Shown: positions 25,917 to 28,783, counted from the whole stretch's first letter. The stretch: DNA of 63,312 bases, filler included, from Neolecta irregularis DAH-3 (GCA_001929475.1; 5 parts of 5 records of this genome joined end to end with filler, not necessarily neighbours in it); one strand, 5' to 3'. Notes: generated by a model from the sequence alone, not told the origin. Translations and numbers: made by a program.

Positions 25917-28783
25917 TTATAACCTATCTACATGTGGCTGATCCCATGGTGTCATCTGACCAGTAAACCCCACACTTTGACGCAAAACTTGCCGAGCAAG
26001 CTGCAGATCTATCGTCTTGACTCCTAATTCAGAAAGGACTTGCTCTGTTTCTTCATGCTTTCCTGTTTTTTCATCCCGCATGAGCATGGCAACTACATCG
26101 TCGAAACACACGCTTGTTGACGAGTCATTTACGTCTTCTTTAGTTGGAAGACTAAGAAGAGTGCACGCATCCTGTAGTCTAGACGATTATAATGTGTGAC
26201 AACGAACAAGGCGTAACATACCTTTGAAAATAGCTTTCAGACTCTAAGAAGAAGATGCCGAATGTCCTTGTCAGCTCTGATATATCACGAGAGAGTTGTC
26301 CGACACCAGATACGCTGAACTTGTTCCTCATCACAACCCAATCCCAGAAATACTGCTGCAGCTCGTTCGCAACACCAAGGAAGATTTTCAAGAATTTCGA
26401 TTGAGATAATGCATGCTCAAGAAATTGTACAATTGTCCTTATTGTATTTGTAATTTTCGTCAATTCAGGAGATATTGCCTGGTGATCGGAAGAGTTGAGA
26501 TCTGTATGTATTCCCCAGGTGTATCTTGAAGTTAGTCTCCACAAAGTGCGAAAAGGGAATACATTCGAAGATAATCATTCATCGAGGAGATCGCTTCTTT
26601 GACGCAGTGATGTAATATCAGCTTTTCCGTCCGCTCAGAGAGCTTTTGGTAAGAATAGAAGGACTCTTGGAATAGCGTTTGGTCTTCATTTTTTGCGCTC
26701 GAAGGAATGCCGCTGGTACCAACCAAGGGGGACAACTGTTGATTTTTCATTTTCTCTGAAATCAGTTCCTGCCACATCTTCAAGAAAAACTAGGACTATT
26801 CAGCGAATGCCAATTAAGAATTCAATACAATGTCCTCATCCCAAAGTTCCAATGTCTTCTGCATAAAGCATGAGCTTCCATATACTCGACATAGCCTTTC
26901 GAGCCCTTGTATTCCAGTGGTGAGTTCAGAATCATCTTGTCGGACTCCAGGAACGGCACGACCCAGTCCTTTCGTCAAACTTTCGAACGCTTCCAATGAG
27001 GAAGTGAGCCTATTATGATAGGAATCAAGTAGAGACAATTGGGTATTTATGAGAAACTGGAGGCGCTGCTGGGCTGAGGGAACCTCTCGATAACGATCTG
27101 TGACAGCAGAGAGGAGATCTTTTAGTCGCAATGCGGATTTTGAAGGTTTGGTATCTTCCTTTTCGACCGTTTCAAAATCAAGTTGCCAAGCGTCATCAGA
27201 ATTGATAACACGTTCGTATCTCTCATTGGCAACTTACGATTAGTCATGATCGCACATGAAGAAGGTACAATTTCTTTCAAAATCCATCCACAGATCAAAA
27301 AACATTGATTTTCCAATGATAACATCAACAGTTCCTTTCCATTCATGTTCCCCATATGGGAGGTATCCATAGAGATTTCTGACAGCGGTGTCAAAGTTTA
27401 GGGACTCTGCGATTAAATGAGAGACTAGTTGAGGCTCGTTCTCGACGATAGGCAAAAGTGACGATAGTTTGGTGTAGATAATCTGTAAAACTGCAGAGAT
27501 GAACTCATTTATAGCGTCATGACTGGAAAAATCAAAAGAATTAAGCAATTGTTGAAGCTGAGATGATACAAAAGGCAAATGATCTTCAAGAACTCGTAAG
27601 GTGTGCACGAAAAACCATTCTGGCTGGAGAGTTAGTAATAATCATGAGATTTGAGATTTACTTTATCGATCTGATTCGTGGGCCTGTTGCCATCAAAGTG
27701 ATATCGAAAACGAACTGCTAAAGGCTTCGCAAGGATCTCAAAGGGTAAAAGAACGTTATATCGTCTGGTATTCTCATATGAACCCAGGTCATGGTCTATG
27801 GCAGCTCGTGCTTCTGAATCACTATACATTCAACGCCTGATCGCAATCAAGAGATCTACTTTGGCTCCAGCAAGAGCACCTGTAAGAATTTCTCCTTGAA
27901 TATTTGTCTTGAGGAATGCTCATCCATACTCTCTACTTTATGCGGCCATCCAATTGCAGTGAGACTTTCTTCCAGATTTCCGATCATCAGAGATTGTAAT
28001 TTTGATAAAGATTACCTGCCAAGTGTTGTGCGCATTCTGGTCCAAATGCTTTCTGTGTTTTTTTGAAGAAAATCGATCAAATGCATTGCCCCCCTATCTG
28101 CATCATCATTTCTTCTCTTCACATCGTTTGTAAGCGATCTTAGCGTATTAAACTGTTCGAGAGCTGTCCGCGTATCTTCGGTATTTTTGTCAATTAAATC
28201 GCTATCAGCAATGAGCTTGGGCTCTCTGAGAGTGGAACCAGCAACCTCAAGGAAATCGCTTGCATAATCAAATCCATATATTTCTTTGCCATTGAAAAAT
28301 CTTTCAATAACACTTCCAATTCTTCGAGCTCCCTATTGAGGTCGGAGTTTTCTATAGATGGCGAACTGTCCGATACTGCGGCTTCGTATATACTGACACG
28401 GTCCATGAGACGATCTGTTTGGGCAGAAATTTCGAGCTTGTGTCTGGATACTTCCTTCGTAGCTTGATGTACATTCGTTTGAGAACGCTCAATCTACTGA
28501 TATGAGTCTCTCCGCTTATTATGAGTCGGACATGTTCTTTCAGATTGTTCTGTTGTGCGTTTAGCTGAGCCAAGAGCTGTTCAATAGAGGCGAGATCTTG
28601 GTAACTCTCAAGCTTGTGTTCGACATATGTAGTAGCTGGATCAGAAGCTCCCTGTATCTCGCCGGTAGTGATCGTATTATCATCTTCAATAAATTTAGGA
28701 GCTTCAAGAATCTTTTCGCTTCGATCAAATGGATTATCATAAAAGGTCCAGCTGCCTGGAATAGGCGATGATATATTTGTCAT
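25917..28783 (-). CDS. TIP20: RINT-1/Tip20 family (Dsl1 complex)
   Basis: RFRYHFDGNRPTNQIDKPEWF, SHLIAESLNFD, QFLINTQLSLLDSYH, KFSVSG; about 9 introns. Confidence 0.9.

Follow-up and report, generated by a model that had tools for sequence, protein, structure and literature searches.

Does the spliceosome of Neolecta irregularis accept GG in place of AG at the 3' end of an intron? The question is raised by a very short intron in the TIP20 gene of strain DAH-3 (GCA_001929475.1), which was predicted from the DNA sequence to begin with GT, to end in GG and to be spliced at that GG. The window analysed here, meaning the whole stretch of DNA, is 63,312 nucleotides long, filler included, and consists of five parts of five records of this genome joined end to end. 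The locus offers a natural test case, in which a gene of the essential type relies on a GG at minimal distance from the branch site with two true AGs lying just downstream. It bears on the second catalytic step of splicing, namely on whether base identity or distance decides which 3' splice site is taken, and on the proposed role of Prp18 as a ruler and fidelity factor. In the literature on Neolecta irregularis introns, the genome paper lying outside that coverage, no report of non-canonical splice sites was found, and PMC8476143 names Neolecta once, in its methods.

The host gene and its protein family

The intron belongs to a RINT1/TIP20 gene on the minus strand (25919..28783), whose transcript-supported model comprises 10 exons, 9 introns of 36-44 nt and 838 codons. 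Translations of six of the ten exons match the Pfam family PF04437 (RINT-1/TIP-1), covering profile positions 1-29, 30-143, 146-278, 280-351, 355-452 and 456-513 in order. Five of these exons score between 33.8 and 138 bits against a cut-off of 30, and the last exon scores 18.1 bits; the match above the gathering score places the protein in the RINT1/TIP20 family. The 134-residue exon is 100% identical to a public protein of 833 amino acids from Neolecta irregularis DAH-3 (P0001), which carries the name RAD50-interacting protein 1. Next come TIP-1-family proteins from Peziza, Ascodesmis, Lipomyces, Saitoella and Russula, sharing 38-54% identity. The assignment of the gene to TIP20/RINT1, originally made from the sequence, is borne out by both the PF04437 matches and the public protein name.

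Sequence of the GT...GG intron

On the minus strand the locus reads ...CTT GGC AG, followed by the intron GTAATC...CTGATGATCGG and then by A AAT CTG GAA GAA AGT CTC ACT GCA ATT GGA TGG CCG. The upstream exon (28016..28201, minus) ends in ...TTLG plus AG, and the downstream exon (27860..27979, minus), 120 nt long and starting with A AAT CTG GAA GAA AGT, completes the reading R-NLEES-LTAIGWP. Both exons are present as pieces of the transcript contig from run X2, the upstream one with no letter other than those of the window. Between them lies a spliceosomal intron of 36 nt with GT...GG ends (27980..28015, minus), defined by the window sequence and by a skip in the same contig. Its 5' splice site, GTAATC (28010..28015, minus), is preceded by an exon end CAG and provides, at 28015-28010, the GT expected of a U2-type intron; its A at position +3 is shared by 53 of the 65 predicted GT-AG introns of the window. 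The presumed branch motif CTGAT occupies 27986..27990 (minus), an assignment made from the motif, which would put the branch adenosine at 27987, with the last intron G (27980) 7 nt further on. At the 3' splice site (27980..27981, minus), where CGG is followed by the exon A, the AG expected of a U2-type intron is replaced by GG, with the same letters in the DNA contig from run X1, and it is this GG that is used in the X2 transcript contig. The 3' exon begins with AAA.

If the intron is retained, the frame reads GGC AGG TAA, an immediate in-frame stop. Two AGs lie downstream (27965..27970, minus), at 18 and 22 nt past the branch A. Use of the first (27970-27969, giving a 47-nt intron) shifts the frame and leads to a stop after 9 codons, whereas use of the second (27966-27965, giving a 51-nt intron) keeps the frame at the cost of five residues. 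What the original prediction had stated about the junction, the TAA upon retention and the 7 nt from branch to GG is correct throughout on the window sequence, and the splice models confirm its further statement that the nearest in-frame AG lies 15 nt further on, skips an earlier AG and deletes five residues.

Transcript and DNA contigs at the junction

Contigs from two runs, X1 and X2, which belong to one study and bear different organism labels, were compared with the window over 27400-28600. The X2 contig, 2463 nt long with a word depth of 55.6, aligns to the gene in six colinear pieces and skips 27624-27661 (38 nt), 27822-27859 (38 nt), 27980-28015 (36 nt), 28202-28245 (44 nt) and 28494-28531 (38 nt). 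Because these five introns are absent from it, the contig must derive from mRNA, although run X2 is listed as 'DNA?'; transcript support consists of one contig from one run, and no run recorded as RNA was found. Four of the skips end in CT..AC on the plus strand, which corresponds to GT..AG on the gene strand. The 36-nt skip joins 28016 directly to 27979 and ends in CC..AC on the plus strand, that is GT..GG on the minus strand, so that 27980-28015 is removed precisely from the transcript in this one contig of one run. The junction has a single equivalent placement (both=1), GG..CG, and no shift of it yields canonical ends. By its ends, its transcript support and the lack of any canonical placement, the intron falls into the GT-GG class.

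Junction reads had been proposed as the means of checking the predicted splicing, and the transcript-like contig shows the GG junction, joining 28016 to 27979 as foreseen. The competing outcome named at the time, a 51-nt intron ending at the AG of gaagaaag, is absent from the only transcript-like contig found. Since this contig carries all 120 nt of 27860-27979, the 15 nt coding for the five additional residues are present in the mRNA.

The same contig corrected the gene structure elsewhere, in that a model of the second intron at 28311-28259 (53 nt) proved wrong and was replaced by 28245-28202 (44 nt). By arithmetic on the record coordinates, about 500 nt of the contig precede the ATG, as a long 5' leader or as part of a neighbouring transcript; its other end lies near the exon end 26563 (minus), where variable splicing of an intron may have broken the assembly.

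Whether the letters GG themselves are reliable was judged from the DNA side. The window derives from a draft assembly with N gaps (for example 25700-25765 and 49089-49098), and a sequencing or assembly error in a genome that truly reads AG might be suspected on that ground. The X1 DNA contig, an independent Logan assembly 8569 nt long with a word depth of about 410, nevertheless also contains the GG and shows no other letters over 27750-28600, although X1 is possibly the sample behind the window assembly and its reads may be the same ones. Such an error is considered extremely improbable, and GG is taken as the genomic sequence.

A difference between strains or alleles would account for the data in another manner, if the donor of the RNA carried a canonical AG and spliced normally while the sequenced DNA had acquired an A-to-G mutation. 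X1 and X2 bear different organism labels, the X2 contig differs from the window at 1 of 1007 aligned bases, and a spliced contig cannot display whether the last bases of the intron are GG or AG. The single other letter lies in the piece 27860-27979, its place within the piece not being reported, and the other five pieces show none. Against such a difference, X1 and X2 belong to one study and five of the six pieces are identical to the window; moreover, the gene is intact in all other respects, and loss of the acceptor in this TIP20 orthologue would lead to an immediate stop. The strain explanation is very improbable, and splicing at a GG that is present in the transcribed gene is preferred.

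Intron architecture of the window

The significance of the 7-nt spacing can be appreciated from the other introns of the window. A total of 65 GT-AG introns, those of TIP20 included, were predicted by a crude exon-chaining script, a gene finder that was trained on the TIP20 gene and afterwards on its own predictions. The X2 contig verifies four of the 65, the others being predictions; as the gene finder splits genes at introns that it does not recognise and misses genes without a clear ATG, the 65 form a sample and no full count. In its scoring, a branch-like motif gained equal credit anywhere 5-11 nt from the 3' end, so the confinement of distances to the range is partly built in, while a peak at 7-8 nt is not.

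Predicted introns measure 33-38 nt in 41 of 65 cases and 31-48 nt in 59, with a mode of 35-37 nt. A YTRAY motif lies near the end in 52 of the 65, with CTGAT as the commonest form (13 of 52). From the branch A to the last intron base the distance is 6 nt in 6 introns, 7 nt in 15, 8 nt in 17 and 9 nt in 4, which amounts to 6-9 nt in 42 of the 52 and 7-8 nt in 32, and it reaches 18 nt or more in 2. With its 36 nt, its CTGAT and its distance of 7, the GG intron sits on the mode of the window, and at the level of the motif it has a branch site at the usual distance for a U2-type intron. The GG intron is a typical intron of the Neolecta genome apart from one base.

Two of the transcript-verified introns, 28494-28531 and 28202-28245 (both minus), have weak 5' ends, GTCCGA and GTTGCT, and their likely branch is CTCAT, which is not YTRAY. 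In 28494-28531, splicing ignores a CAG situated three bases ahead of the TAG at which it occurs; use of that CAG would leave an in-frame TAG.

Outside the TIP20 gene, two long open frames were missed by the gene finder: one at 30596-31273 (plus), which from the look of its sequence we take to encode an alkaline-ceramidase-type membrane protein, and one at 24766-25450 (minus), presumably the N-terminal, nitrilase-like part of an NAD synthase, again by its appearance. Runs of N occupy 25700-25765 and 49089-49098, and around the latter a stretch of about 50 nt is repeated on both sides (48990-49150, plus), which looks like an artefact of scaffolding or gap closing.

The architecture of the intron also bears on an assignment to the minor spliceosome. 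Eight U12-type GT-GG introns in human and mouse are listed in Table 2 of PMC1557818, and a branch site near the 3' end is described as a U12 trait in the literature. The 5' motif of U12-type introns is likewise described as highly conserved, with GCATCCT as its GC variant, and the 5' end of the TIP20 intron, GTAATC (GTAATCTT), is unlike that motif when set against the U12 consensus. The short distance from branch to end, furthermore, is the norm for introns of the window and confers no special mark. The minor spliceosome is not known from Ascomycota. A U12-type intron is for these reasons hardly credible here, and a U2-type intron remains the preferred reading.

Orthologue alignment and the public protein

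Comparison with orthologues had been suggested as a second check, to see whether NLEES is needed before the conserved WP. The 838-residue transcript-supported model, derived from the window coordinates, was aligned by MAFFT with P0001 and 12 orthologues, from Peziza, Ascodesmis, one Logan protein, five Lipomyces, two Saitoella and two Russula; P0004 and P0008, two of the 15 database hits and fragments of 243-245 amino acids that stop short of the N-terminal region, were left out. Across the junction segment none of the 12 orthologues has a gap and the GG model is gap-free, while P0001 alone shows a gap of five columns. Counted from the conserved W, the WP motif with its own W follows at 20 positions in all 12 orthologues and in the GG model, where NLEES is aligned over QLEEA and DLEEL. 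The alignment requires the residues, the W-to-WP spacing of 20 being obtained only with the GG model, and the check thus turned out in favour of the GG junction. Five residues are missing from P0001 at the junction, and every examined orthologue has them.

P0001 reads ...TTLG-SLTAIGWP... and resumes at 27966, which corresponds to the 51-nt AG intron. The public gene model, probably built on the GT-AG rule, would have chosen the in-frame AG and so deleted the five residues. Further upstream, P0001 departs from the transcript in two places: it removes a 44-nt GT..AG segment, 28376-28333 (minus), which is kept in the X2 contig as part of the uninterrupted piece 28246-28493, and it reads through the true 44-nt intron 28245-28202 (minus). 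Through the false removal together with the read-through, about 43 residues (public amino acids 124-166) are out of frame relative to the transcript, and the transcript version of this region aligns with the orthologues. The public Neolecta TIP20/RINT1 protein is to be corrected accordingly, five residues being absent and about 43 wrong upstream, and the case serves as a warning that gene callers restricted to GT-AG mis-annotate the Neolecta genome.

These data also speak to the chance that both acceptors are used, the GG (36-nt intron) and the in-frame AG (51-nt intron), yielding two proteins that differ by five residues, of which the assembler kept the GG form. Precedent comes from Drosophila, where five of the six annotated GT-GG introns possess a comparable canonical splice as an alternative (Table 3 of PMC4528330), and the AG at 27966-27965 is in frame; contigs, besides, drop rare variants. 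However, the only transcript contig shows GG, the five residues are lacking in none of the 12 orthologues, and the AG lies 22 nt from the branch, beyond the usual range (18 nt or more in 2 of 52 predicted introns), with the first AG having to be skipped. Dual use is a rather unlikely though not negligible alternative. The reading retained is that GG is very probably a genuine, productive 3' splice site in Neolecta irregularis TIP20.

Search for further non-AG introns in the window

If the TIP20 intron were one of many, others might be visible in the same DNA. A relaxed pattern scan of the window returned 80 non-AG candidates whose retention does not leave the frame open (32 GG, 25 CG and 23 TG) against 61 AG. 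Nearly all of the 80 were rejected, as they overlap an AG solution, run antisense to a gene or have poor 5' ends. In two noisy pattern scans of the window, no second convincing non-AG intron was found besides that of TIP20, which gives a tally of about 1 non-AG to about 65 predicted AG introns in an incomplete sample biased towards AG.

Two weak leftovers may be recorded. At 49430-49463 (plus), a 34-nt segment GTATGC...CCTGACTGGCG with GT-CG ends has an open frame on either side and offers no AG in place of its CG; as a candidate it is weak, situated in a GC-rich stretch and in an open frame without assigned identity. At 58327-58363 (minus), a predicted 37-nt intron ends in ...GCTGATAGCTCG-TAG, where a CG follows the branch A at 7 nt and the TAG at 10 nt, both in frame and one codon apart; the corresponding CG form, 58330-58363 (minus), ending 3 nt before the predicted TAG, is the second of these leftovers.

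A possible mechanism and its consequences

The TIP20 intron is best explained as a very short U2-type intron, ordinary but for a G where the second-to-last base should be A, at whose GG the spliceosome still ligates the exons. In the yeast P complex (bioRxiv 10.1101/212811), the branch A pairs with A(-2) of the 3' splice site, while G(-1) of that site pairs with G(+1) of the 5' splice site. As only position -2 is changed, the GG acceptor keeps the contact between G(-1) and G(+1) and alters that between A(-2) and the branch A. The terminal G could then still contact the first intron G, and the spliceosome may do without the contact between position -2 and the branch A, or replace it.

The 3' splice site might be chosen mainly by position, as a G lying some 7-8 nt past the branch adenosine, and the true AGs at 18 and 22 nt would then be out-competed by an acceptor at minimal spacing. 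Several observations on budding yeast, given in PMC10711555, are relevant to such a choice. The shortest natural distance from branch to acceptor is given there as 10 nt; without Prp18, BG acceptors come into use, UGG being among the most efficient, along with acceptors as near as 7 nt, and Prp18 is likened to a ruler by which a minimum distance is set. The same source holds that weak acceptors benefit from adenosines in the exon, and the 3' exon of the TIP20 intron begins with AAA. Because the spacing of 7-8 nt found in Neolecta corresponds to a regime that yeast reaches only without Prp18, we think that position may outweigh the identity of base -2 in the choice of acceptors in Neolecta.

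A more far-reaching idea, offered tentatively and with the balance somewhat against it, is that Neolecta irregularis may use a fixed ruler, by which a G about 7-8 nt past the branch adenosine is selected and only this terminal G is needed. Were this so, about 1% of introns would constitutively end in TG, GG or perhaps CG, a rate of non-AG ends at least ten times that of curated fungal and fly annotations. Neolecta would then be nature's equivalent of yeast with prp18 deleted, its Prp18/Slu7 fidelity module being perhaps changed or lost, and the public Neolecta proteome would be systematically wrong at such sites.

Comparison with known GT-GG and related systems

The TIP20 GT-GG intron belongs to a known, very rare class. 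Among animals, human BANP has a U2-type GT-GG intron whose GG is conserved in vertebrates and which carries AG in fishes (PMC4176328), and Drosophila has 6 GT-GG introns among 60,223 annotated introns (Table 3 of PMC4528330). These U2-type introns resemble that of Neolecta in their ends, their normal U2-like signals, their transcript junctions and the presence of an AG nearby. In contrast, the animal introns are long and have polypyrimidine tracts, whereas the Neolecta intron measures 36 nt and has its acceptor 7 nt from the branch.

Within fungi, the manually curated annotation of Ganoderma lingzhi contains 38 GT-GG introns among 92,106 (0.041%; Table 1 of PMC11590231), and GG, TG and CG ends together amount to about 0.09% there. 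The Ganoderma introns are likewise fungal, supported by RNA and missed by automatic gene models; Ganoderma, however, is a basidiomycete with introns of ordinary size, unlike Neolecta. TG 3' splice sites were reportedly described by Szafranski et al. in 2007; they share with the TIP20 intron a non-AG end with a terminal G, and differ in that position -2 is G here and not T.

The U12-type GT-GG introns of ARAF and SLC12A7, as given in Tables 2-3 of PMC1557818, are similar to the Neolecta intron in their GT-GG ends and in a branch near the 3' end. The 5' splice site of the Neolecta intron, by comparison, is not U12-like, and its geometry is common to the ordinary introns of the window.

A further likeness is offered by prp18-deleted Saccharomyces cerevisiae (PMC10711555), in which acceptors such as UGG come into use, as do acceptors only 7 nt from the branch point. 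The yeast strain is a mutant in which such splicing is of low fidelity and competes with that at the normal YAG, whereas the GG acceptor of Neolecta appears to be productive and protein-preserving in a wild fungus.
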